A stretch of 64,000 nt of DNA, from NCBI RefSeq assembly GCF_024502345.1, contig NZ_JALDNN010000001.1; one strand, given 5' to 3'. The notes beneath the pieces were generated by a model, which worked only from the letters and a program-made list of their open reading frames with translations, made no database searches and was not told the origin of the DNA. Position numbers and translations under genes: made by a program. Within the stretch, counting starts at the first letter, position 1. Each line of letters begins with the position of its first letter. Below, one piece after another: positions 7,118-34,840 of this stretch. The DNA comes from Escherichia coli. Lineage in GTDB: Bacteria; Pseudomonadota; Gammaproteobacteria; Enterobacterales; Enterobacteriaceae.

Positions 7118-7204
7118 GCCCGGATGGTGGAATCGGTAGACACAAGGGATTTAAAATCCCTCGGCGTTCGCGCTGTGTGGGTTCAAGTCCCACTCCGGGT
7201 ACCA
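7118..7204 (+). tRNA. leuZ: tRNA-Leu (anticodon UAA), long variable arm; 3' half is the integration site of the element
   Basis: 87 nt ending CCA; anticodon loop gatttTAAaatcc; T-stem carries a compensatory U-A pair relative to the displaced copy at 34590-34645. Confidence 0.9.
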
Positions 7205-7276
7205 TGGGAAACATCAGAATAATCAAAGCAATAAGCAGTGTCGTTAAACCACCTCCGGGTGGTTTTTTTGTGCCTG
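7149..7276 (+). repeat. attL: direct repeat covering the 3' 56 nt of tRNA-Leu plus terminator
   Basis: About 128 bp, roughly 95% identical to 34590-34719. Confidence 0.85.
7246..7269 (+). terminator. Rho-independent terminator after leuZ
   Basis: Hairpin accacctccgggtggt followed by T7. Confidence 0.7.
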
Positions 7277-7445
7277 AAATTCATGTCCTGTGCATATCCT
7301 GTGCTCACGGGGTGCGATGAGCTGCAATCTCCAGCCTGGCAATGACGAATCGAACGTGTCGCCTCCAGCATAGAGAACCAGGCCGCTTTGCCTGTTTTCC
7401 GGTACGCTTCCGGGAAGGGGGGCCTGCTGAGCAAGCTGTAATGCT

Positions 7446-8186
7446 CTAGCCACCCTGAGTACAAAGTTGCTTAATTCGTGCAATCACCTCATCTCTGTAC
7501 TTCTGGTGTCCGCGCATAGCCCGTGGATGGGCAATTCTGAAACAGATTGCATTACCTGTTTTGAACTCCCATAGCTTCCCCGGAATGACTGAAGAAGTCT
7601 CATAGCCGCCCAGCTCAGTAAGCACCTGTTTTATGATGTAGTCTGTTCTCCGGGCTCCAGATGCAAAGATGATGAAATCAGGCTCAAGGTGTTTAATTTG
7701 TACCGCCAGCAGCTTCAGCGAGGCTAATATGACTTCCTGCACTTCATTTTGAGGGCGATTGAGAGGGGTCAGTCCGTCGTAATCCCACGCCAGTAGATTG
7801 GCATACACGATTGCCTGGGGAAGAATATTAAGCTCCCGGGCCAGCCTGAAATGATATTGCGTGAAGCGGCTACGTGATTTGAGGTTGGTGGTGCCATCAT
7901 TTTGTACCGGAAGATGATTCCTGTAACGATCTACAGCTTCTTCAACCACCTGCCCGATGGTGACGTCAGGTATAAGTCCCAACACCCGTGATATCGTATT
8001 CTTACCATTCAGCGTATTCCAGCCTGCGGTTTCACGTCCAACCAGCATGATTTTTATCGGTGAATGCCAGTATTCTTCAAACGGCACGGGTAAAAAGACG
8101 CCTGAGTATTTATCTTCATTCAGGTTAAATGACTGGGCGTCAACTTCCTGTAATATCCGTTTGTACGCGTCTAATAGCTTTTCCAT
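7446..8186 (-). CDS. Uracil-DNA glycosylase superfamily protein (UDG-like)
   Basis: 246 aa; KIMLVGRETAG resembles the family-4 UDG motif-A region and FRIAHPRAM resembles motif B (HPS-like). Confidence 0.5.
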   Translation of the reverse strand: MEKLLDAYKRILQEVDAQSFNLNEDKYSGVFLPVPFEEYWHSPIKIMLVGRETAGWNTLNGKNTISRVLGLIPDVTIGQVVEEAVDRYRNHLPVQNDGTTNLKSRSRFTQYHFRLARELNILPQAIVYANLLAWDYDGLTPLNRPQNEVQEVILASLKLLAVQIKHLEPDFIIFASGARRTDYIIKQVLTELGGYETSSVIPGKLWEFKTGNAICFRIAHPRAMRGHQKYRDEVIARIKQLCTQGG

Positions 8187-8266
8187 TCTTCAATCCTGCC
8201 CCGTAATAAAAACACCTTCAGATATATATTATCTCCATGATATCAATCAGATACATGAGGATAAAT

Positions 8267-9484
8267 ATGCAAAAATCCTTCCGATTCACCAATTCATCCA
8301 TCAAAGCCCTTCCGGCAAACACAGATACCCGATCTACAGAGCTTGAGGTATCAGATACCGAGGTCATAGGCCTCAAATGTCTCTCAGGTCGAACGGGTAA
8401 CAAACGTTTCCTCCTGCGCTACACATTCCACGGTACCAAAAAAAGTATCAGTATTGGCAGATTCCCTGAAATCGATGTGGGGACAGCCCGTCAGATAGCT
8501 CGCCGTCATAAGGAGGCGATTGCACTTGGAAATGACCCCAAGGCAGAGCGCGATAATTATCGTGCGATGCCAACGCTTAGTGAGTTTTTTCACCTGACCT
8601 ATGTTCCGTTCATCAAGCGCCATAAAAAGTCCTGGGATAAGGATGTTCAGCGTTTCACGCAATACATTGAACCTCGTCTGGGGAAGATACGTTACTGCGA
8701 TCTCAGGGCCAGAGAGATACAACAGGTGCTGTTTGACATGCTGGAGGGGCGTATTCACGGGCAGCAATATGCGCCGTCTACCTGTAACAGAGCCCTTGCT
8801 ATTCTGAAAACGATGGGGCGTTATGCGTTGCGACAGGATGTGCTGGAAAAGAATGAAGCCGATAAGATCCCTTTACTGAAAGAGAATAATCAGCGGACGC
8901 GCTTTTTTGATGCTGATGAGATCAGGCGCATTCTTGACGCTGCTACCCAATATCCCAACAAAGCTGCCGGGGGATTGATAGCCATGTTGTTGTTAACCGG
9001 TACACGCAAATCAGAAATGCTTAATGTCAGGCATGAACATATCGACCGGGCCAATCGTACTCTGTTCATTCCTTATACAAAAAATGGTCGCAGTCGGACG
9101 GTATATCTAAGCGATGCAGCATTATCGATTATTGATGCTATCCCACGAGTTGGCAGTAATCCGTATCTGTTCGCCATTAAGGATAATGGAAAACCGATAT
9201 CGGAACCCCGATGGGCATATGAAAAAATACTGGCACAGTGCGGTATAGACAAGAATGAAGTCTGTTTTCACACCACACGTCATTCTGTTGCCTCTTTACT
9301 GGTTTCGAGTGGTCAATTCAGCCTGTATGACGTTAAAGCACAACTGGCGCATGCCAGTATTCAAAGTACGGAGCGCTACGCGAAATTGACACCAGAGCGT
9401 ATGCGTCAGACCGGGCAGGGCGTAACTGACCTTCTTTTGAACACCGTTACTGCCGGTAACAATGATGATTTTAGCACCCCTTGA
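8267..9484 (+). CDS. Tyrosine recombinase / integrase (P4-like); alternative upstream ATGs at 8237 and 8255
   Basis: Catalytic signature TGTRKSE (R), HTTRHSVAS (HxxR), ERYAKL (Y); RBS gagga before ATG 8267; adjacent to tRNA att site. Confidence 0.85.
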   Translation: MQKSFRFTNSSIKALPANTDTRSTELEVSDTEVIGLKCLSGRTGNKRFLLRYTFHGTKKSISIGRFPEIDVGTARQIARRHKEAIALGNDPKAERDNYRAMPTLSEFFHLTYVPFIKRHKKSWDKDVQRFTQYIEPRLGKIRYCDLRAREIQQVLFDMLEGRIHGQQYAPSTCNRALAILKTMGRYALRQDVLEKNEADKIPLLKENNQRTRFFDADEIRRILDAATQYPNKAAGGLIAMLLLTGTRKSEMLNVRHEHIDRANRTLFIPYTKNGRSRTVYLSDAALSIIDAIPRVGSNPYLFAIKDNGKPISEPRWAYEKILAQCGIDKNEVCFHTTRHSVASLLVSSGQFSLYDVKAQLAHASIQSTERYAKLTPERMRQTGQGVTDLLLNTVTAGNNDDFSTP

Positions 9485-9493
9485 ACGTGGAGT

Positions 9494-9751
9494 ATGAGTA
9501 TGCCGTTAAAATGTCCTAAGTGTGGTAGCCGAAATACAGTGACAGAAACTGCCGGAAAGATAGCAGAAGTGACTCGCGATGACCGGTTCCTGACATCGAC
9601 ATCCGGTTATATTAGCCCGGAGCAATTACCAGAATTGCTTAAAGAAATCATCAGGGCGATACAACGTCTCTTTAGATTCCTTGAACAGCGTGAAAGGAAT
9701 AATGCGCCAGTGCTGATCTGCAAGGATTGTGGATATTATGAAAGAATATAG
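9494..9751 (+). CDS. Small zinc-ribbon protein (CxxC...CxxC), function unknown
   Basis: 85 aa with CPKCGS ... CKDCGY; translationally coupled to the integrase gene. Confidence 0.5.
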   Translation: MSMPLKCPKCGSRNTVTETAGKIAEVTRDDRFLTSTSGYISPEQLPELLKEIIRAIQRLFRFLEQRERNNAPVLICKDCGYYERI

Positions 9752-9796
9752 ATGACCACTGAAGGCAATTCCAGATTCTTTAGCCTGTCTATGTAA

Positions 9797-9826
9797 CCCC
9801 GATACTTAAAACGTATCGGGTTTTTT
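9797..9826 (+). terminator. Rho-independent terminator
   Basis: Hairpin cccgatac...gtatcggg followed by T6. Confidence 0.6.
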
Positions 9827-9844
9827 GTTTATGAGGATTATTCA

Positions 9845-10216
9845 ATGAAATTTGTCTCGAACTGGCAAGACCTGCCGTCGCTCCTTCTTCCGGAGTCAGT
9901 AATGAGTCTGTTGAAAACAGAGCTGGTACTCCCATTTGAAGATGAATACTCTGCAATGAGTTTCTGGGATGAAGTCGGGGTGACATTAATATATGTCGAG
10001 CCCGATGATGTACCTGAAGATATTAAAGCGCAGGTATTAAATGTGATTCATCAGTTAATTGCAAATCCAGAATTTGTAGTCCGTCTGACAGATGACTATT
10101 ACCTGATGCTTTCTGTTACGGAAGATAACGGGAACGGTATTTATCTGTTATTTCACCCCGATTGCCCTCTGAAGGGTATTGATTTATTAATTTCTATGGC
10201 CGAATCACGCTATTAA
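9845..10216 (+). CDS. Hypothetical protein (element cargo)
   Basis: 123-aa ORF with RBS-like aggatta upstream; no recognisable motif. Confidence 0.45.
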   Translation: MKFVSNWQDLPSLLLPESVMSLLKTELVLPFEDEYSAMSFWDEVGVTLIYVEPDDVPEDIKAQVLNVIHQLIANPEFVVRLTDDYYLMLSVTEDNGNGIYLLFHPDCPLKGIDLLISMAESRY

Positions 10217-10241
10217 ACACAAGCAAAACCTGGAACGCAAA

Positions 10242-10775
10242 ATGAGTAAATCAAAATTAGTTAAAAATAATGTTGAGTCAGTTTCGAAGGAGATTAAAAA
10301 TGAGGCAGAGGTTATTCATGAAAATCTCAGTGCAGATGAACAAACATTATCTGATATAAAAGACTATCAGTTGCTCATTGAAACAGGCCAGGCAGAAAAA
10401 ATCAGTCCTAAGGCAAGTGGTATTCTGACATGGCAACTGGCGATATCAGAGGTGGACAATGAACTTTATCTTCGTCTGGTGGCAAATGGCTGTGGAGGGT
10501 TGTTCTCTAAGGACTGGATCTCACTTTCTAAGATTGCAACTGTTCTGGAAACACAACCTGCTACCGGCTTCTCATCCGGAGTATTCAGGCCGCTATTCAA
10601 AGGGGCAAGCGCCAACAATGCAGGTTTTCTGGCTGCTGTTTTACGCTCCCCGGATATATGTCTGCTGGAGGCACATCCAGAGAAGTTATTTACTCATGTA
10701 TTATACCCGGACTGGAGGGAGCGGTTGAATAAACTTAATACGATCAGTAGCCAGGGAAAGATTACAGAGGATTAA
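10242..10775 (+). CDS. Hypothetical protein (element cargo)
   Basis: 177-aa ORF, AT-rich codon usage. Confidence 0.45.
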   Translation: MSKSKLVKNNVESVSKEIKNEAEVIHENLSADEQTLSDIKDYQLLIETGQAEKISPKASGILTWQLAISEVDNELYLRLVANGCGGLFSKDWISLSKIATVLETQPATGFSSGVFRPLFKGASANNAGFLAAVLRSPDICLLEAHPEKLFTHVLYPDWRERLNKLNTISSQGKITED

Positions 10776-10847
10776 TTTATTTCCTGCACTGTTATACAAC
10801 CAGAAATCACCACACACCACTATTTACTTTCTAAAGGAAAATTTATT

Positions 10848-11282
10848 ATGCAAACCCAATATGCCTTAAAACAGGCAGGATTAACTCTGCCTGTTACTAA
10901 AGAATTTCAGCAGCATATTACTACTCTTCTGGCAAATCAGGTTTTACAAAAAATAACTGAGGCAGTGGTTATTAATTTCCGCGATCCGGACTACAGTGCA
11001 GAATCCGGGGGCTTTCATCCCGTTGAAATACGGTTTATCCGTAAGAATAATGAATGGTATTTTGATTATGTCACAGATTTTAGTTATATGGGGCGTGTCT
11101 ACCCTGAGCTGGAAAAAGAAATTGATTTTTGCTGGTCGGGGAATTATGTCTTCCATTATCTGATTGGGGATATTTCACTGGCAGCAGAGAGGAATGAACT
11201 CTGGTCTCTGTGGGAGCGTAATTTTATGGAGTATCTCTCTATGGGGATTTACCGGGTAACGGTAACTGTGGAAAGTTGTTGA
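10848..11282 (+). CDS. Hypothetical protein (element cargo)
   Basis: 144-aa ORF. Confidence 0.45.
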   Translation: MQTQYALKQAGLTLPVTKEFQQHITTLLANQVLQKITEAVVINFRDPDYSAESGGFHPVEIRFIRKNNEWYFDYVTDFSYMGRVYPELEKEIDFCWSGNYVFHYLIGDISLAAERNELWSLWERNFMEYLSMGIYRVTVTVESC

Positions 11283-11583
11283 CCCGTTATGAACAGGAAG
11301 AAAGCGGGCGGCTTTGTAATCTACAGCATGTGGTGTGCATCACAGCATGGAGATGATGTCTCTTTTTCCTGGCTGTTCGCATAAACAAGTGCAGACACGG
11401 GGGATCTCAGATCCCTCGTGATTTTTGCCCCCTATGGTGCATTCTTCTGTAGCAGGGTGATAACGGTTAATCCATTACCCCAACGACAGTATTACACCGG
11501 TAATAAATGTTCATGAATACAGTTAGTTATGTGGGTTTTGAGGTGGGCTATGTCATCGTTGACGATAACTGAAGGTTTTACAG

Positions 11584-11811
11584 ATGTATAAAACTCGCGG
11601 TGAAAGGATCGCAGAAAGGCTGTGCTGGATATTACTTCAACTGTATACCGGTAATACGGTATCGGTTAATGATATATGTCAGCGTTTCGCGGTCAGTCGC
11701 CGAACCGGACAGCGTGATTTGTTGAGAGTTGAAACTGTAACGGAAACTATTTCACCTGGAAGGGTAAGGCTGGCAAATTTGATAAGGGAACGAGTTAGAC
11801 GAAATTTTTAA
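11584..11811 (+). CDS. Small HTH protein resembling the N-terminus of YafY/WYL-type regulators
   Basis: 75 aa; ...NTVSVNDICQRFAVSRRTGQRDL... HTH, parallel to the N-terminus of the 12773-13675 product. Confidence 0.4.
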   Translation: MYKTRGERIAERLCWILLQLYTGNTVSVNDICQRFAVSRRTGQRDLLRVETVTETISPGRVRLANLIRERVRRNF

Positions 11812-11892
11812 TCGAATCCATATCAATTCTATAAAATATGAAACTTAACGGGAGTAAATATACACTCCCGTTATAATGCAACCTTTTTTTAA

Positions 11893-12711
11893 CTACTCAA
11901 ATGATATTAATTTAGGTGCGACAGTGTTTTTATGACATGTTAAATTCGCAAGATCAATAATATCATGAAACAATTTTATGTCGTCGTCAGTGAGCTCTAC
12001 GTCTGGATCAGCTAAATCGGCACAGGTAACATTTAACCAGTGTGTTAATGAATCAATCCTGTTTGAAGTAATATATTCAGTGTGACCAATATCCCACTTC
12101 CAGTTGATCACCCGAGCAGGTCTGAATCTCACCTCCCGAACCCCAATTGGCGTTACTGACTCTACGAGAGGGTATATCGTGTTAAGTACTTTATCATGTT
12201 CACTGTAGATATTTAAATGCCCCATTTTTGAACCGTAAGCCATTTTCATTATGTTCTCTGTATAACTTGTTATTGGGGTGGCTCCGGCCATAGAGATTGT
12301 TAAGAGAATATTATCATTTTTAATATAGGGTAATGTATTGTTTATTAATCGAGTCCCTAAAGAATGACCCATTATGATCACATTACGCTTTTCTTTAACG
12401 TATATCTCGTTTATTACGTGTGCTAATTTTTCTCTGTTATTAACTGCTGCTTTCGTTGCATTATACCAGGCCTGACGCGCTTTAAATGGAATGGAGATTG
12501 ATGACAATAAAGGAGATGTTCTCAGGGGGAAGAGAGTATATAACCCCCACTTGTTCGCTATGTCAGAACTTAATATGGATAGTAGATTTGCCGATTCCCA
12601 TTTATAGTATCTGACATCAAGGCCACACCCTGCTTTAATTCGGTTAAACCATGATATATCATTTTCGGTCAGAAACCCTGATACAACAAGAAGAACCGGG
12701 CATTTTTTCAT
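11893..12711 (-). CDS. Alpha/beta-hydrolase-fold protein (GxSxG nucleophile elbow)
   Basis: 272 aa; IIMGHSLGTR serine-hydrolase motif. Confidence 0.5.
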   Translation of the reverse strand: MKKCPVLLVVSGFLTENDISWFNRIKAGCGLDVRYYKWESANLLSILSSDIANKWGLYTLFPLRTSPLLSSISIPFKARQAWYNATKAAVNNREKLAHVINEIYVKEKRNVIIMGHSLGTRLINNTLPYIKNDNILLTISMAGATPITSYTENIMKMAYGSKMGHLNIYSEHDKVLNTIYPLVESVTPIGVREVRFRPARVINWKWDIGHTEYITSNRIDSLTHWLNVTCADLADPDVELTDDDIKLFHDIIDLANLTCHKNTVAPKLISFE

Positions 12712-12772: not shown

Positions 12773-13675
12773 TTACGGGGCGTTACTTGGCTGGGTGTAA
12801 CGTTTCAGTGCGGATTGTATATCTTCAGCAAGTTGTTGACGGATTGAGGCCGGTTGTATTACTTCGACATCCGGTATCCAGTATTTCATTAAAGGCATTA
12901 TCTGATCTGTGTGTGTTACACGTGATATCACCAGTAAATCGCCAGACCGGGAAGTATGAATTATTTCCTGTCCTGGCAATAGATGACGGTGGGTAAACCA
13001 CGGAGCAACATGTGCGGAAACTGAAATAAGAACTTCGATAAGGTCTTCGCTATACCAGATACCATCTGTCTTTTCTATTTTTTCATTAATTTCGGGGATT
13101 ATCCTGAAAGAGATATTACTCATGCAAACGTCTTTGACAGATGAGATAACAAAGCTTTTTAATGTACTGTCATGGGCGGCAGCGAGATACCACAATCCGT
13201 TGTCATTAACCAGCCTGTATGGCTCAACAGCCCGAAACTCTTTATCTTTGTAATTAAAATTTACTTTCTTCTGTGACAGGATGGCATCGGATAATACATT
13301 CAGAATTGACATGAATGATCCGCAGTTTTCGTATGGACGTTGTTTTATCAGAAACGGGTTGTTTTTCGTGTTACCTAACAAAATACTCAGTAGTCTGTCA
13401 TCCCAGCGAGGGAACAGCCCTTCAATACCCAGGATGCGCGTGAAATGACGTAAATCAGCATTGCTGCGTTGACCGAGAACACCGTCAGACAGGCGATAGC
13501 GACCATTTTGTCGAATCAGATTAAGATAGGACAGGCGCTGAGTAAGATCACGACGGATAGTTTTTTCGCAAACGTTAAATTCCTCAGATAACTCCCGGAC
13601 GGCTAGTGACTCACCATTGTTCAGGCGAGTTAATATCAATCCGAGTCGATATCCAAGTTTATCGTGCTTACCCAT
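12773..13675 (-). CDS. HTH + WYL-domain-type transcriptional regulator (YafY-like)
   Basis: 300 aa; N-terminal DeoR-like HTH ([21 protein letters not shown]), central region consistent with a WYL domain. Confidence 0.5.
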
Positions 13676-13724: not shown

Positions 13725-13835
13725 GGACAGGATGAGTCCACTTTTACTGTGACGGAGAAAAAAATTAACTCATTAATTATCAATATATTAAAACATTGCT
13801 GGAATCATCGAATAACATGTGGACTCATCCTGTCC
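13725..13835. promoter_or_regulatory. Perfect 17-bp inverted repeat pair (candidate operator) upstream of the WYL/HTH regulator gene
   Basis: ggacaggatgagtccac (13725-13741) and gtggactcatcctgtcc (13819-13835), 77-bp AT-rich spacer. Confidence 0.5.
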
Positions 13836-14054: not shown

Positions 14055-14381
14055 ATGTATTTACATATCAGAAAGTATCAACTCGTAAATGCGAGATGGC
14101 GTGATGTCATTGATCTGACAGATTATGAAGAAACAATCAGGCAGGTTGTCGGTACATTATTTGGAAATGATTTTATTGAGGTCAGCGTTGAAACAAATTG
14201 TTTTACTCTGACAGTAAACAGTACAAGCAGTAAAATACCACACGGCATACTGGTGAATATGGGGAAAAGGCTGGCGGCTAATCTCCAGAGTATCACCTGT
14301 CATGCCATGCGGATCTATCATGTAAATGGCCATCCTGACGCGCGGCAGTTATTTCACTGTTTTGATGCCGATTGCCTGTGA
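14055..14381 (+). CDS. Hypothetical protein (element cargo)
   Basis: 108-aa ORF with RBS aaaggtgg upstream. Confidence 0.4.
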   Translation: MYLHIRKYQLVNARWRDVIDLTDYEETIRQVVGTLFGNDFIEVSVETNCFTLTVNSTSSKIPHGILVNMGKRLAANLQSITCHAMRIYHVNGHPDARQLFHCFDADCL

Positions 14382-14429: not shown

Positions 14430-17030
14430 TCAGACTGGAAGACAGAATGTCGGATATTTACGGGCTATGATATCCATCAGTGACTTCATTCGCGGTGTTA
14501 CAGAACTAAATTTCATTTGGGGTATTTTTGCTCTTACCGCATTTTTTACATCAGTCACCGTTACTGAATAGCCTTCTGACGTCAGCCATTCAGCAACCTC
14601 TTTACAGGAATAACTTTTTTTATCTTTCAGCATCAGCCCCCATTGGCACTGAGTCAGCGCCCGGAGAAATAGTCTGACTAAAATATCATCACTACGTTTG
14701 CTTCCGACTTTTAGTTTCATATCAGAAAACACCGTCCGGCAATAGAGAAAATCACACCAGTCATCCCAGTCAGCCAGGGTCTTCAGTGTATGCGTTTGCC
14801 GCCAGTCGTCGAAAAGGGAGCGCTGCTGCAGAGCCTCTTCCATATTATCCCATGGGCGGGAAAACATCAGTAAATGCCCTTCATTCATGGCGGGCTGTAC
14901 GGGCTGGCGTTTGAAATCGAATTCCAGATTAAGACGGATATCCTGTTCCCGGGATACCAGATCGCTTTCCGACAGCCACATCTCACGCGTTGATATCAAC
15001 GTACTTCGGGATAAAGTCTGACCGGGTAAACGATTAAGGTAAAGATCTACCATATAGTCGTTATAGTCACTGCGTGGAATATCGGCAGGAGGTTTGACGC
15101 CAGCCCTGGCATGAACAACAGGTTTTCCCTGAATAGCTCTATAGGTTAACTGCCCCCGGGTTTTCATGGCGATAAGCTGGCTGACTTCATGCTTACATGT
15201 CAACATTGATGAACCCGGATCAACAATATCGCACAGCGACTGGAAGCGGGAAGACAGTGGACCGCTCATGTTTATCTTGTTAAGTGGGCAATTTGTCAAA
15301 AAGCCATCGGTTGTGACGCTGACAACCGATGAATCAGAAGGCAAAGCATTCATGAGTTCCCCGGCAACGGCGCGGATAAATCCCGTTACATGCGCAGCAA
15401 AGAATGGCTGAGTAACCGATGATGGTGGGAGGGATCTGTTTAATCCACGGGCAGTATCAAAGGCGGTTTTGGCGCGAAGGCCCTGAGCAAGTTTGCCATA
15501 AAGCGAGTTGCCAATTTCTTTCCAGAATTTCTCCTCCAGAGAACCTTTAATATGGCGATTACGGTTCTCACGGACCTGTTGAACAAAGGGAAGAAACACC
15601 GATGTTGATTCGCTGTTATGTGGGGAGGTGTCACAGATCCAGGGGACGATGATCCCATTATGGATCGTCATCTCTGCCCCGAGCGACAGAGCAAGTTCGA
15701 TTTCAGGTGCCGTTGCCCATGATTCGCCACTTAATGGAAAGAATAACCCATATTGATCGGTCCGAACCGGCAGGCTGGGATAGGGAACTGATTCCGGGAA
15801 CCGAAATGTGACAAGCGCAAATCCCATTACATGCCCACAGTAATCGTCCGGATTTTTACTGAGGCGGATGTTCCCGTAATCGGGTGTGAGGATATCTAAT
15901 AGCCCGGTGGTATACGCTCCAGCCAGATCGTAGTCATACCAGTGATCAGACGGTGTAACCCCCATCATAAAACACTCATTGCGTCCGCCGTGGTAACAGT
16001 TGATCGGGAACGTTTCAAACAACTCTCTTGAAGGAACACTGGCGGGGTTTTTAATCGTCCGGAATGCCTGTTTCTCCGTGAGCCAGAGTTCACGGGTTTT
16101 AATGTGTGTCCCAAGGCAGACTTCAGGAGACATATTGTTTTCTTTAAGTGTTTTGGTGAACCGTGAAACTGCCATCGCCCCGATGGTGGCGGGGACACGA
16201 TCAATCATCAGCTCCCGGGCGCAAAAATTGCGAACCTGTAAAGCATAACGAACCGCAATCTCGGCATCCCGCAGAGCATAGGCTTCAAACCCTGCTCTGT
16301 CGCCCAGAAGATATTCACGCATATTGGTTATGGAATAAGGTGCAGGAATGGTGAGTTTGGGAAGACCCAGTAATTCACCACATTCAGCCAGACCCATACC
16401 CCCGGGAGTGATAAGCAGTGTATCGATGAAAGCTACGTTACTGCAACGCGGAGGGGAAGTTCGTTTGTCAAACATTATCTGTTCAGTCTTTACGCGACGT
16501 TCCTGCTGTTCATCAAAATCGATACCGTAACGATTTTTGAAGCTGCTGACAGTACCGCGTATTCCTTTCAGAAGAATTTTGTAGTCTGACCAGAAATTGG
16601 CAAAGGAGGCGATATCCGCACGAATGAAATGCGCATATATATTAATAATACCGGGCCATTTTGTAATCACACCCGTTTCAAGAAGCGGTGTAATCGTTTG
16701 ACAGAGAAATTCCTTAAAAGACAGCCGGGATTTTTTCTGTGAGTCAGGTGGATAGATAATGTTCGATATACCTGTATTATCGGGTAAGATAACATAACTC
16801 TGATATGACAGAATATCATTCTGTCGTGTTTCAGGGTTGAAAACATATTCGGTATCAAAACCGATATGGAGTGTCAGGTCACTTGAAATAACAGATACTT
16901 TTTTTGATGCAGGTGGTATCACAGGATAATCATCAAGCGTTTTAGGTCTTTTACGATTGAGCGCTGGCTCTGAAGTCACGGACTGATACCCCGAGGCGGC
17001 AGCGAGGATGTCCTGCAAATTATTGCTCAT
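14430..17030 (-). CDS. Family-B DNA polymerase with 3'-5' exonuclease domain (piPolB-like); alternative start at 17093
   Basis: Exo I FDTE, Exo III YALRD, motif A DYDLAGAYTT, motif B KEIGNSLYGK, motif C VTTDGF, downstream KTRG, all in canonical order; RBS ggag before ATG 17030. Confidence 0.85.
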   Translation of the reverse strand: MSNNLQDILAAASGYQSVTSEPALNRKRPKTLDDYPVIPPASKKVSVISSDLTLHIGFDTEYVFNPETRQNDILSYQSYVILPDNTGISNIIYPPDSQKKSRLSFKEFLCQTITPLLETGVITKWPGIINIYAHFIRADIASFANFWSDYKILLKGIRGTVSSFKNRYGIDFDEQQERRVKTEQIMFDKRTSPPRCSNVAFIDTLLITPGGMGLAECGELLGLPKLTIPAPYSITNMREYLLGDRAGFEAYALRDAEIAVRYALQVRNFCARELMIDRVPATIGAMAVSRFTKTLKENNMSPEVCLGTHIKTRELWLTEKQAFRTIKNPASVPSRELFETFPINCYHGGRNECFMMGVTPSDHWYDYDLAGAYTTGLLDILTPDYGNIRLSKNPDDYCGHVMGFALVTFRFPESVPYPSLPVRTDQYGLFFPLSGESWATAPEIELALSLGAEMTIHNGIIVPWICDTSPHNSESTSVFLPFVQQVRENRNRHIKGSLEEKFWKEIGNSLYGKLAQGLRAKTAFDTARGLNRSLPPSSVTQPFFAAHVTGFIRAVAGELMNALPSDSSVVSVTTDGFLTNCPLNKINMSGPLSSRFQSLCDIVDPGSSMLTCKHEVSQLIAMKTRGQLTYRAIQGKPVVHARAGVKPPADIPRSDYNDYMVDLYLNRLPGQTLSRSTLISTREMWLSESDLVSREQDIRLNLEFDFKRQPVQPAMNEGHLLMFSRPWDNMEEALQQRSLFDDWRQTHTLKTLADWDDWCDFLYCRTVFSDMKLKVGSKRSDDILVRLFLRALTQCQWGLMLKDKKSYSCKEVAEWLTSEGYSVTVTDVKNAVRAKIPQMKFSSVTPRMKSLMDIIARKYPTFCLPV

Positions 17031-17076
17031 AGTTAACTCCGAAAAAATGCCGGGAGCTGTGTCCCGGCATAAAGAA

Positions 17077-17715
17077 TCAGGATTTAATAACATTTACTAC
17101 AGATTTGAAAATATCGGTTTTGTGTGATTCATCATCTACATGGATAAAGGAAACGAGTTTCCTGCCTGCTTTAATCAGGATACCGCGTTGCGTCTTTTCC
17201 ACAGACGGGGTAACGTGTGCAGATAACAGACAATGTTCATGTAAATGAAGAAACTTTTTTGAGGCGTAGCCGCCATGTAATCGGGCTTGAATGTCAAGAT
17301 ACATATCATCAAGAGAACCGGGTTCTCCTGATTCACTCAATACCGGATAACCCTTCTTATCAAAGAGGTTAAGGATAGATTTACTATCATGTTCGAACAG
17401 GGTAACACCGTAAATGTATTTCATTCGAAAGGTGAGGGAATCGGTGGTGTAGACCTCCTCCTGACGATTGAAATTTTTGAGACGCCTGGCTAATTCATTA
17501 AAAACAGCACGAGCAGTAGCCGTGTCCTGCAGGGTGTAGGTATAAAGTACGAAGCCATCTGTGCCGATGAGCTTTACTAAGTTGTCCATAATCGTGATAG
17601 CGAGAACTAATGCAAAGGACAGATATTTTTCATCGTTGTCTACAGCTGTGTTTGCTGCTTCAGGAAGAATGTTCAGTGCATTATTAGCATTATTTGCTGT
17701 GTTCTTAGTAACCAT
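17077..17715 (-). CDS. Hypothetical protein between the excisionase and PolB genes
   Basis: 212-aa ORF overlapping the xis stop by 11 nt; no recognisable motif. Confidence 0.5.
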   Translation of the reverse strand: MVTKNTANNANNALNILPEAANTAVDNDEKYLSFALVLAITIMDNLVKLIGTDGFVLYTYTLQDTATARAVFNELARRLKNFNRQEEVYTTDSLTFRMKYIYGVTLFEHDSKSILNLFDKKGYPVLSESGEPGSLDDMYLDIQARLHGGYASKKFLHLHEHCLLSAHVTPSVEKTQRGILIKAGRKLVSFIHVDDESHKTDIFKSVVNVIKS

Positions 17716-17905
17716 TTATATCACCTTTAAGTTTGTTTTGACGATGTGCATTTTCCCACTCAACAATATCATCAAGAGAGAATCGTATAGCCCGCCCAAT
17801 TCTGATGAAGGGCGGGAGTTTTCCTGGGTTGCGCGATATATCTGACGCAACCGTGGATGCGGAAAGATTAAATCTTTCTGCAAACTGCTTAATGGTTAAA
17901 TACAT
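17705..17905 (-). CDS. AlpA/Xis-family excisionase-like DNA-binding protein
   Basis: 66 aa; LTIKQFAERFNLSASTV ... winged-helix pattern typical of AlpA/Xis. Confidence 0.65.
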   Translation of the reverse strand: MYLTIKQFAERFNLSASTVASDISRNPGKLPPFIRIGRAIRFSLDDIVEWENAHRQNKLKGDINGY

Positions 17906-18055: not shown

Positions 18056-19186
18056 TCATTTTTTCGTGTCATAACTTTCTATGACCTGAGAAACCACTGC
18101 GTGCGATGTCGCTGCATTGTGAAAAGCGTAGCGACGGGTCGCCGTGAGTGAATGGTGATTTAGCAGATGGGAAGCGATTGCAATATCCCCGGTCGCCTGT
18201 AGTACCCGGGTGGCAAAGGTACGGCGCAGGTCATGCATCCGCAGGTTATCAATGTTGGCATCCCGACAAATACGGGCAAAGGTTGCACGCGGATATGCCA
18301 GAGGGCGGGCATTGTCGGTTAGTTGTGGAAAAATGTAAGTTTTGCTGAGCATCAGGTCTTGCTGGCACTGGACAACTGCAATGGCTGGAGGTGCAAGTGG
18401 GCAGGTGAAAGGGTGTCCGGACTTTGTATCAGGCAGTATGAGTTGATGCATATCCGGGTGCCAGTACTCCCATTTCAGGGTACATACCTCACCAATACGC
18501 ATCCCCGTATAAAGAGCAAGCAATATAGAATCAGCTGCCGGTGTTTGCAGCGCTGTTGCCGCGTCAATAAAGCGCGGGATTTCTGTCGCTGATAGTGTGC
18601 GATAGCGAATGTTATTTTCTTTCAGATAGCGGACATGTGACATCGGGGAATGTGTGATCCATCCAGCACGTACTGCCAGAGAGCATATTTTGGACAATAT
18701 TGCGAGGATACGGTTTACTGTTGACGGACGTAATTTTTCCCGTAAGCCAGCAGCATATTGTTCTAGTTCCCCTGCCGTGATGTCGCGAAGTTGCCGCTTG
18801 CCCCAGAACGGGCGAACGTAGAGGTTGAGTTTTGACAACTCTGACTGAGGACTCTTTTTATACAACTGCAAATCCGGTAGCCACAGGTCATTGATGGCCT
18901 GTTCCACAGTGAATCGACGGGACTGAACCGCAAGACGATTTTTATCAGCAAGCAGTTTCATCACATGCTGACGGGCATCCTCAACGCAGAGCTGAGGGAA
19001 CTGACCCAGGGTTTCATATATACGCTGATTGTTTATAGTGGCACGAAAGGCCAGCGTGATCCGATTGGGATACACCAGAGCACGCAGGTTTTGGCAGTGA
19101 ATATCACGGTATTCCTGACAACCCGTGAGGGGATGTGGAAGTTGGTGAAGTGATTTGTTGCTGAAACGCAGATCCAGAATAGGCAT
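18056..19186 (-). CDS. Second tyrosine recombinase (XerC/D-like integrase)
   Basis: 376 aa; RIGEV (R), HDLRRTFAT (HxxR), TRRYAFH (Y). Confidence 0.8.
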   Translation of the reverse strand: MPILDLRFSNKSLHQLPHPLTGCQEYRDIHCQNLRALVYPNRITLAFRATINNQRIYETLGQFPQLCVEDARQHVMKLLADKNRLAVQSRRFTVEQAINDLWLPDLQLYKKSPQSELSKLNLYVRPFWGKRQLRDITAGELEQYAAGLREKLRPSTVNRILAILSKICSLAVRAGWITHSPMSHVRYLKENNIRYRTLSATEIPRFIDAATALQTPAADSILLALYTGMRIGEVCTLKWEYWHPDMHQLILPDTKSGHPFTCPLAPPAIAVVQCQQDLMLSKTYIFPQLTDNARPLAYPRATFARICRDANIDNLRMHDLRRTFATRVLQATGDIAIASHLLNHHSLTATRRYAFHNAATSHAVVSQVIESYDTKK

Positions 19187-34589: not shown

Positions 34590-34719
34590 ATTTAAAATCC
34601 CTCGGCGTTCGCGCTGTGCGGGTTCAAGTCCCGCTCCGGGTACCATGGGAAAGATAAGAATAAAATCAAAGCAATAAGCAGTGTCGTGAAACCACCTTCG
34701 GGTGGTTTTTTTGTGCCTG
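34590..34719 (+). repeat. attR: displaced 3' half of tRNA-Leu plus terminator (direct repeat of 7149-7276)
   Basis: Contains tRNA 3' 56 nt ending CCA at 34645, with no 5' half upstream; terminator hairpin at 34691-34712. Confidence 0.85.
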
Positions 34720-34840
34720 CAACTTGTCGTTACACCCTCCTTAATTTTTAATCACCGGCAAAGCCACTCAAAAAGTATCTCTGATACGGACCGGCATGTA
34801 AGATAGGTGCTGGCGAGTTGAGATCCACAAGGAAAAACGT

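Follow-up and report, generated by a model that had tools for sequence, protein, structure and literature searches.

Small genes behind the integrase of an Escherichia coli pipolin: identity, distribution and possible roles

Identity of the island and of its four small genes

Short genes that follow an integrase in a mobile element raise the question of whether they belong to the backbone of that element or are exchangeable cargo, and of what their products do. Here the question is posed by four open reading frames (ORFs), named ORF1 to ORF4, in a 64,000-nucleotide stretch of Escherichia coli DNA (contig NZ_JALDNN010000001.1, assembly GCF_024502345.1), referred to as the window. Our analysis confirmed them on the plus strand at positions 9494–9751, 9845–10216, 10242–10775 and 10848–11282, in the same direction as a tyrosine integrase of 415 amino acids (aa) at 8237–9484 that lies directly 5' of them. 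An earlier note on this DNA had described the string as AT-rich, which is borne out by a GC content of 40–44% in the ORF region versus 48–54% in the uvrC/pgsA flank.

The element that carries these genes is about 27.4 kb long and is delimited by direct repeats of about 133 nucleotides (nt), whose copies were found to be 95% identical in a repeat search. The left copy (attL, 7149–7279) overlaps the 3' end of a tRNA-Leu(UAA) gene (7118–7204, ARAGORN) and the right copy (attR) occupies positions 34590–34722, while the left flank is ordered uvrY-uvrC-pgsA, followed by tRNA-Gly, tRNA-Cys and tRNA-Leu. On the minus strand at 14430–17093 the island encodes an 887-aa protein, piPolB, labelled as DNA polymerase by RefSeq and matching Pfam DNA_pol_B_2 weakly. 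It contains CKH at 633–635 (K634/H635) and KTRG at 644; when numbered from Met22, the KH residues become K613/H614, in agreement with the published numbering (PMC5695915). The KH and KTRG motifs have been used to define primer-independent family B DNA polymerases, with KTRG taking the place of the PolB KxY motif (PMC5695915). Since att-like repeats at tRNA-Leu are combined with a polymerase bearing KH and KTRG, the island is a typical E. coli pipolin.

Pipolins are a third class of self-replicating mobile elements. The gammaproteobacterial pipolin core has been reported to consist of piPolB, IntSXT, IntP2, DUF2787, two orphan proteins and a WYL protein, situated beside the integration site (Mateo-Caceres et al., NAR 2024, PMC11551731); in that paper these core genes are classed as non-recombining and are given no function. 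The window has an integrase gene, ORF2, ORF3, DUF2787 and WYL, all in the published arrangement. ORF4 is the DUF2787 gene of this core, and ORF2 and ORF3 are very probably its two orphans, judged by position and conservation. It is nearly certain that the four ORFs are pipolin core genes. Of 5,426 complete E. coli genomes, 338 contain the ORF1–4 region (query 9400–11900), in every case on the chromosome; the ORF2–4 block was present at a coverage of at least 80% in 322 complete E. coli genomes and piPolB in 295. Identity between the window and about 320 sequenced E. coli pipolins is 96–99.7%, and the locus is a typical pipolin core that has already been catalogued.

Conservation and selection were examined through pairwise ratios of nonsynonymous to synonymous substitution rates (dN/dS) against relatives with dS between 0.2 and 1.0. 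The ratios were 0.09–0.15 for ORF1, 0.11–0.18 for ORF2, 0.22–0.25 for ORF3 and 0.12–0.13 for ORF4, as compared with 0.03–0.09 for the integrase. Four divergent E. coli relatives and seven further enterobacterial species have all four ORFs in intact form. Judged by these substitution patterns, the four ORFs are real genes under purifying selection and not chance ORFs.

Two gene units and their proteins

ORF2, ORF3 and ORF4 form an operon between two terminators. The first is an intrinsic-terminator-like hairpin on the plus strand at 9798–9826 (CCCGATAC, a 7-nt loop, GTATCGGG and then T6), whose hairpin portion (9798–9820) lies about 15 nt ahead of the ribosome-binding site of ORF2. The stem is invariant in 10 enterobacterial elements, including one in which the adjacent spacer has been replaced. 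The hairpin occurs in a single copy in the window, and in Vibrio and other elements unrelated terminator-like hairpins occupy the matching position where ORF2 follows co-oriented genes. For these two reasons it is taken as a terminator, and a role as a repeated operator was rejected. Its placement suggests that ORF2–4 are expressed largely via read-through of this upstream terminator. A second terminator-like hairpin at 11396–11425 (plus strand; hairpin portion 11396–11420), with an 11-bp stem of which 7 are GC pairs and a following T-run, closes the unit. Intergenic gaps within the operon are 25 nt between ORF2 and ORF3 and 72 nt between ORF3 and ORF4, and in relatives ORF2 and ORF3 either overlap or lie 3 nt apart. 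A known RNA family in the region was also considered and rejected, the Rfam matches being the flanking tRNAs alone.

The statement that the ORFs have no recognisable domains is right only in part and fails for ORF4. ORF2 (9845–10216) is a 123-aa alpha/beta protein which belongs to no Pfam family and is strongly acidic (isoelectric point, pI, of 4.05 and charge of -15), as are its homologs (pI 4.0–4.4). A search for a structural relative of ORF2 found none. Three candidate relationships were rejected: a SUKH/SMI1-type immunity domain, considered for the pattern D-x-G-x-G-x-Y-L, has no Pfam match in 81 members and no structural match; homology with the N-terminal sheet of ORF3 through a common glycine-rich hairpin reached an hhalign probability of 3%; and a 174-aa acidic protein located upstream of ORF3 in Aeromonas shows no detectable homology to ORF2 (E about 0.6) and is an analogue at best.

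ORF3 (10242–10775) is a 177-aa protein whose N-terminal tail of about 40 aa is disordered; it also has a sheet of three strands and a core resembling a winged helix. The most conserved motif of the family, the near-invariant S-x-NNAGFLAAVLR, sits on the helix at the recognition position of this core. The known systems closest to it are winged-helix transcription regulators (MarR, PadR, ArsR) and the plasmid-partition DNA-binding protein TubR. Structure prediction, which the earlier note had proposed as a check, gave a winged-helix-like core for ORF3 through a weak match (Z no higher than 5.4) and no structural relative for ORF2. Sequence searches of the PDB with ORF2, ORF3 and piPolB returned no matches, and ORF2 and ORF3 fall in no described family. 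A +1-frame ORF at 10459–10728 matched the ORF3 hidden Markov model only because one sequence of alignment A2 (P0085) is frameshifted. The ORF3 homologs of Methylococcales (L047, 9953–10765; L059, 6086–6919) carry an acidic, proline-rich C-terminal extension of about 100 aa, which replaces the short enterobacterial tail and is probably disordered.

ORF4 (10848–11282, 144 aa) is a DUF2787 protein (Pfam PF10980, 3.8e-40), scoring 137.5 bits versus a cut-off of 27 and spanning profile positions 2–126 of 126. It is acidic and homologous to the proteins of PDB entries 2W56 (4e-26) and 2V1L (3e-24). The fold of 2V1L, which is Vibrio cholerae VC1805, has been described as Mam33/p32-like and monomeric, a fold class of acidic multi-ligand binders.

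The first unit consists of the integrase and ORF1. The integrase (plus strand; Pfam Phage_integrase 8.9e-24, Arm-DNA-bind_3 2.9e-14) is labelled as a site-specific integrase by RefSeq in relatives, and its designation as IntSXT-type is taken from the literature only. The earlier note had called it the left-end integrase; its adjacency to the ORFs stands but it is not outermost, since between attL and int there is a conserved orphan ORF of 246 aa (7446–8186, minus strand), which has no Pfam match and was seen in 6 enterobacterial loci. The stop codon of int (9482–9484) is followed by GGAG at 9489–9492, a Shine-Dalgarno sequence, and by ATG codons at 9494 and 9500, so that ORF1 starts 10–16 nt past the int stop codon. 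The second ATG is most likely the start, giving 83 aa instead of 85, because GGAG lies 7 nt upstream of it and 83 aa is the length predicted by other gene callers.

ORF1 is a probable zinc-ribbon protein of the CxxC...CxxC type, with CPKC near the N-terminus and CKDC near the C-terminus, and all four cysteines are retained in every allele, including the diverged one of L002, the commoner allele in E. coli, whose N-terminal half is heavily changed. It is intact in the four E. coli relatives (L001–L004). Its best Pfam match, Zn_Ribbon_TF, reaches 23.8 bits, under the cut-off of 29, and it falls short of the cut-offs of the Lar restriction-alleviation family (PF14354, 18.3 bits versus 28.6; TIGR03655, 14.5 bits versus 39.6). 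ORF1 was found in enterobacterial piPolB-type elements only; its homolog clusters number 27, the named ones being from E. coli and Citrobacter only. PGAP/RefSeq omits it in all four genomes inspected. ORF1 is a genuine gene that deserves annotation.

A mosaic patch at about 9470–9605 covers the 3' end of int and the 5' half of ORF1, and the window carries the rarer allele. In the class of 296 E. coli genomes at 95–99% identity, the alignment with the window starts only at about 9600 among the matches listed. In the L002 element, the last 40 or so nt of int, the spacer and about the first 36 codons of ORF1 have been replaced as one block.

Distribution of the cassette and the genes around it

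An ORF3 alignment was used to search a single genome of each species, the ORF3 model being built on 24 sequences. Loci were fetched with flanks of up to 10 kb, and the ORFs in them are the longest ORFs. The scan gave 58 loci from 58 species, all from Gamma- and Betaproteobacteria: the former comprise Enterobacterales, Vibrionales, Aeromonadales, Alteromonadales, Oceanospirillales, Methylococcales, Chromatiales and Nevskiales, and the latter include Massilia, Telluria, Janthinobacterium, Noviherbaspirillum and Zoogloea. ORF3 is immediately preceded by ORF2 in 30 of these loci and immediately followed by DUF2787 in 30; 23 have the complete ORF2-ORF3-DUF2787 trio. In 41 of the 58 the distance from ORF3 to an integrase is no more than 3 kb, and in 30 this integrase is also co-oriented. 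Within the 10-kb flanks, piPolB was detected in 12 loci, DUF927 in 14 and VapE in 2, and no replication gene was detected in the remaining 30. Unbiased clustering of ORFs from 67 loci recovered as partners an integrase (60 loci), DUF2787 (35), ORF2 (33), WYL (28) and DUF927 (21), followed by a short helix-turn-helix (HTH) protein (17), an AlpA-like protein (13), an LRAT-family protein (13) and piPolB (11).

Divergence of ORF3 correlates with that of ORF2 (r 0.44), DUF2787 (0.43) and WYL (0.39) and much less with that of the nearest integrase (0.13), values that come from Mantel statistics which are crude on account of saturating local identities. The weak tracking of the integrase agrees with the frequent integrase exchange reported in PMC11551731. 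The trio is an ancient co-inherited cassette of tyrosine-integrase islands, whichever replication gene they carry.

Relatives lacking piPolB, which the literature raises as a possibility only, were found across many species, and their replication genes are commonly of the DUF927 type. In such islands a DUF927 protein and an integrase (together with an AlpA-type HTH where gene calls exist) are found instead of IntP2, the excisionase and piPolB, while the ORF2-ORF3(-DUF2787)-WYL module is shared (L005–L009, L012, L013, L022–L028, L031, L032, L054 and L064–L067). VapE stands in place of DUF927 in three loci (L011, L057, L061). Islands that are otherwise related appear to have exchanged their replication modules. 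The gene order of the operon in enterobacterial DUF927-type islands is ORF2-ORF3-DUF2787-LRAT-HTH, with an integrase in divergent orientation, whereas a YkvA-like gene separates ORF2 from ORF3 in Vibrio, Aeromonas and Oceanospirillales.

The trio is essentially confined to chromosomal islands. No homologs of ORF1–4 were found in 50,697 GenBank phage genomes, and among 72,556 plasmids, searched for ORF3 and DUF2787, the former occurs in 2 and the latter in 15. In view of the zero homologs in those phage genomes, matches to PHROG families were rejected as evidence of a phage origin; islands that were predicted to be prophages are the probable source of the matched families.

A second, independent context of DUF2787 exists on plasmids and in E. 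coli, where it is accompanied by RadC-like genes, AlpA and an integrase, with no ORF2 or ORF3 there. About 630 complete E. coli genomes, ST131 among them, and some large plasmids carry a different DUF2787 paralog, its RadC context in the E. coli genomes being judged from one locus. In that ST131 locus (L076, 6050–9296) and in L074 and L075, the conserved order is HTH | 162-aa protein, DUF2787, a 153-aa protein, RadC and a tyrosine recombinase, with AlpA nearby.

Beyond ORF4, the pipolin backbone continues with a stand-alone basic HTH protein of 75 aa (11584–11811, plus strand), which matches Pfam HTH_11 and HTH_DeoR below threshold. The WYL regulator has a paralogous HTH at its N-terminus (27% identity, E 6e-5). 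The 75-aa gene is kept in 17 loci and is the last operon gene in DUF927-type islands. It is possible that this protein acts as a sensor-less competitor or co-regulator of the WYL protein. The latter is an HTH-WYL-WCX regulator (12773–13675, minus strand) that matches Pfam WYL, WCX and HTH_DeoR as well as PADLOC WYL models. Between the two lies a convergent gene for a DUF726 alpha/beta-hydrolase with a GHSLG motif (11893–12711, minus strand). The content of this slot varies, with unrelated small genes taking the place of DUF726 in other pipolins (L004, 8497–9730), and in DUF927-type islands an LRAT-family gene follows DUF2787 (L008, 9961–10422). The slot looks like a small hotspot for cargo or effectors beside the WYL regulator.

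Upstream of the WYL gene, a perfect 17-nt inverted repeat (GGACAGGATGAGTCCAC at 13725–13741 and GTGGACTCATCCTGTCC at 13819–13835, arms 77 nt apart) is located in the intergenic space before orf108 and could serve as an operator of the WYL regulator. Orf108 itself is a conserved orphan ORF of 108 aa (14055–14381, plus strand) between WYL and piPolB, showing 35% identity to a gene of DUF927-type islands in Edwardsiella. The other conserved arm of the pipolin consists of a 212-aa ORF (17077–17715, minus strand), without a Pfam domain and conserved in 7 loci, and a 66-aa ORF of putative AlpA type (17705–17905, minus strand), in the position of the gene that RefSeq calls AlpA family in relatives. 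Both lie between piPolB and a second integrase (18056–19186).

Possible functions and known systems

We favour the view that ORF1–4 are backbone genes and not exchangeable cargo. A backbone role is preferred over exchangeable anti-defence cargo because the genes are absent from phages and because ORF3 and DUF2787 are nearly absent from plasmids. The fuller statement, that the four ORFs are pipolin backbone and that the trio forms a regulatory or maintenance complex, is put forward tentatively and with somewhat less than even confidence, its functional part being much weaker than the identity of the genes.

Under this proposal, ORF1 would probably be co-transcribed with the integrase, and possibly be translationally coupled to it, before transcription meets the invariant terminator. 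ORF2, ORF3 and ORF4, expressed mainly by read-through of that terminator, would act jointly as an element-autonomous regulatory or maintenance complex, in which ORF3 may be the subunit that binds nucleic acid or a ligand, with the acidic ORF2 and ORF4 as possible partners or modulators of ORF3. Such a complex might work alongside the WYL and short HTH regulators to govern excision, replication or stable carriage of the island.

Several observations weigh against this proposal. Formation of a complex is read solely from the operon structure, and the co-divergence values are crude in the way already described. The fold match of ORF3 is weak, and because its conserved helix is largely hydrophobic and E. 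coli ORF3 is not basic (pI 5.5), DNA binding by ORF3 is uncertain. A link to replication is not established, given the 30 loci without a replication gene within 10 kb. Finally, variable membrane or lipase-like genes (YkvA-like, LRAT, DUF726), located within the operon or next to it, suit a system of defence type just as well as a backbone role.

A wider claim, which we consider rather unlikely, is that the trio is an autonomous and previously undescribed three-protein system, with a new acidic fold in ORF2 and an atypical winged helix in ORF3, and the hallmark of a large superfamily of gamma- and betaproteobacterial islands with tyrosine integrases, whose replication gene (piPolB, primase-type DUF927 or VapE) is interchangeable. 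Its activity might then be a new control of excision or replication, the sensing of infection, or the neutralising of host nucleic-acid-binding proteins.

The suggestion of regulators or anti-defence proteins made in the earlier note is supported in part, a regulatory or maintenance role being the one tentatively favoured and anti-defence a less probable rival. That rival holds that the acidic ORF2 and ORF4, and perhaps ORF1, are anti-defence, anti-restriction or counter-silencing establishment proteins that bind and neutralise host DNA-binding proteins such as restriction enzymes or H-NS-type silencers upon entry of the island into a cell or its expression there, and it appears unlikely. The extreme acidity of ORF2 and its homologs, at a charge of -15 over 123 aa, and the acidic, Mam33/p32-like character of ORF4 count in its favour. 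The AT-rich genes adjoin an integrase, and DUF2787 elsewhere accompanies RadC, AlpA and a YeeP-type GTPase, a typical island establishment set; even the sub-threshold Lar likeness of ORF1 points in this direction. The DNA-mimic anti-restriction proteins Ocr and ArdA are comparable to ORF2 in size and charge. Like them, ORF2 is strongly negative and encoded on a mobile element; however, it has no fold or sequence similarity to these two proteins, is absent from phage genomes and matches no known mimic fold. The absence of ORF1–4 from phages and the near absence of ORF3 and DUF2787 from plasmids also speak against this explanation.

Quite improbable, in our estimate, is an undescribed defence, abortive-infection or addiction system, in which ORF2-ORF3-DUF2787 would form a sensor or regulator core with swappable YkvA-like, LRAT and DUF726 effectors under the WYL regulator, so as to protect the host or stabilise the island. 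Pipolins are characterised as defence islands in PMC11551731, an HTH-WYL-WCX-type regulator is present in 28 of 67 loci, and the candidate effectors sit in or near the operon: the YkvA-like gene between ORF2 and ORF3, LRAT after DUF2787 in 13 loci and DUF726 by WYL in the window. In a Vibrio pangenome, moreover, DUF2787 co-occurs with LRAT, an integrase and a gene flagged by DefenseFinder. However, that study found no phage-resistance link and shows co-occurrence only, for which reason a connection between DUF2787 and phage resistance was rejected. Neither ORF1–4 (at E <= 0.01) nor DUF726 has a match in PADLOC-DB v2, many loci have just ORF2-ORF3 beside an integrase, no candidate effector having been identified in them (L042, L044, L046, L069), and outside integrase islands the genes are all but absent. 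The replacement of DUF726 by unrelated genes in other pipolins makes it look like separate WYL-linked cargo.

Equally poor prospects attach to the idea that ORF1 and/or ORF3 are integrase accessory factors, that is, recombination directionality or architectural factors at the att sites. The winged-helix fold is common among excisionases, the integrase lies within 3 kb of ORF3 in most loci and is often co-oriented with it, ORF1 begins directly behind the int stop codon and its own Shine-Dalgarno sequence, and the int 3' end and ORF1 5' half were replaced together in the commoner E. coli allele; but ORF3 tracks the integrase poorly (r 0.13 versus 0.44 for ORF2) in elements whose integrases are frequently exchanged (PMC11551731), DUF927-type islands have the integrase and the operon in divergent orientation, a separate AlpA-type excisionase is present at 17705–17905, ORF1–4 have no excisionase-family match in Pfam, NCBIfam or PHROG, and ORF1 is absent from all non-enterobacterial relatives.

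The few conserved non-polymerase genes are the obvious place to study how pipolins are excised, replicated, maintained and transferred. The shared cassette, ORF2 with no detectable structural relative and the usually unannotated, probable zinc-ribbon gene ORF1 are targets for experiment. A cassette common to islands with other replication genes also questions the status of piPolB as the defining gene of this island family.

Among known systems, ORF4 has counterparts on islands of V. cholerae: its homologs VC0508 (2W56, on VSP-II) and VC1805 (2V1L, on VPI-2) are likewise encoded on integrase-bearing islands. Unlike ORF4, VC0508 is near the RadC-annotated VC0510, and the E. coli and plasmid paralogs too stand beside RadC-like genes and not ORF2 or ORF3. 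The VSP-II neighbourhood in fact resembles the RadC-type DUF2787 string.

The published pipolin core belongs to the same type of element, having likewise a tRNA-Leu site with repeats of about 130 nt and an identical gene set near the integrase (PMC11551731). The basic picture of a typical, catalogued E. coli pipolin core is unchanged by our analysis, and published knowledge is extended modestly. Two differences from that account, as far as its cited portion goes, can be noted. ORF1, the probable zinc-ribbon protein, goes unmentioned there; and whereas the core is treated as specific to pipolins, a specificity that our results question, ORF2-ORF3(-DUF2787) was found here also in DUF927 and VapE islands and in Betaproteobacteria.

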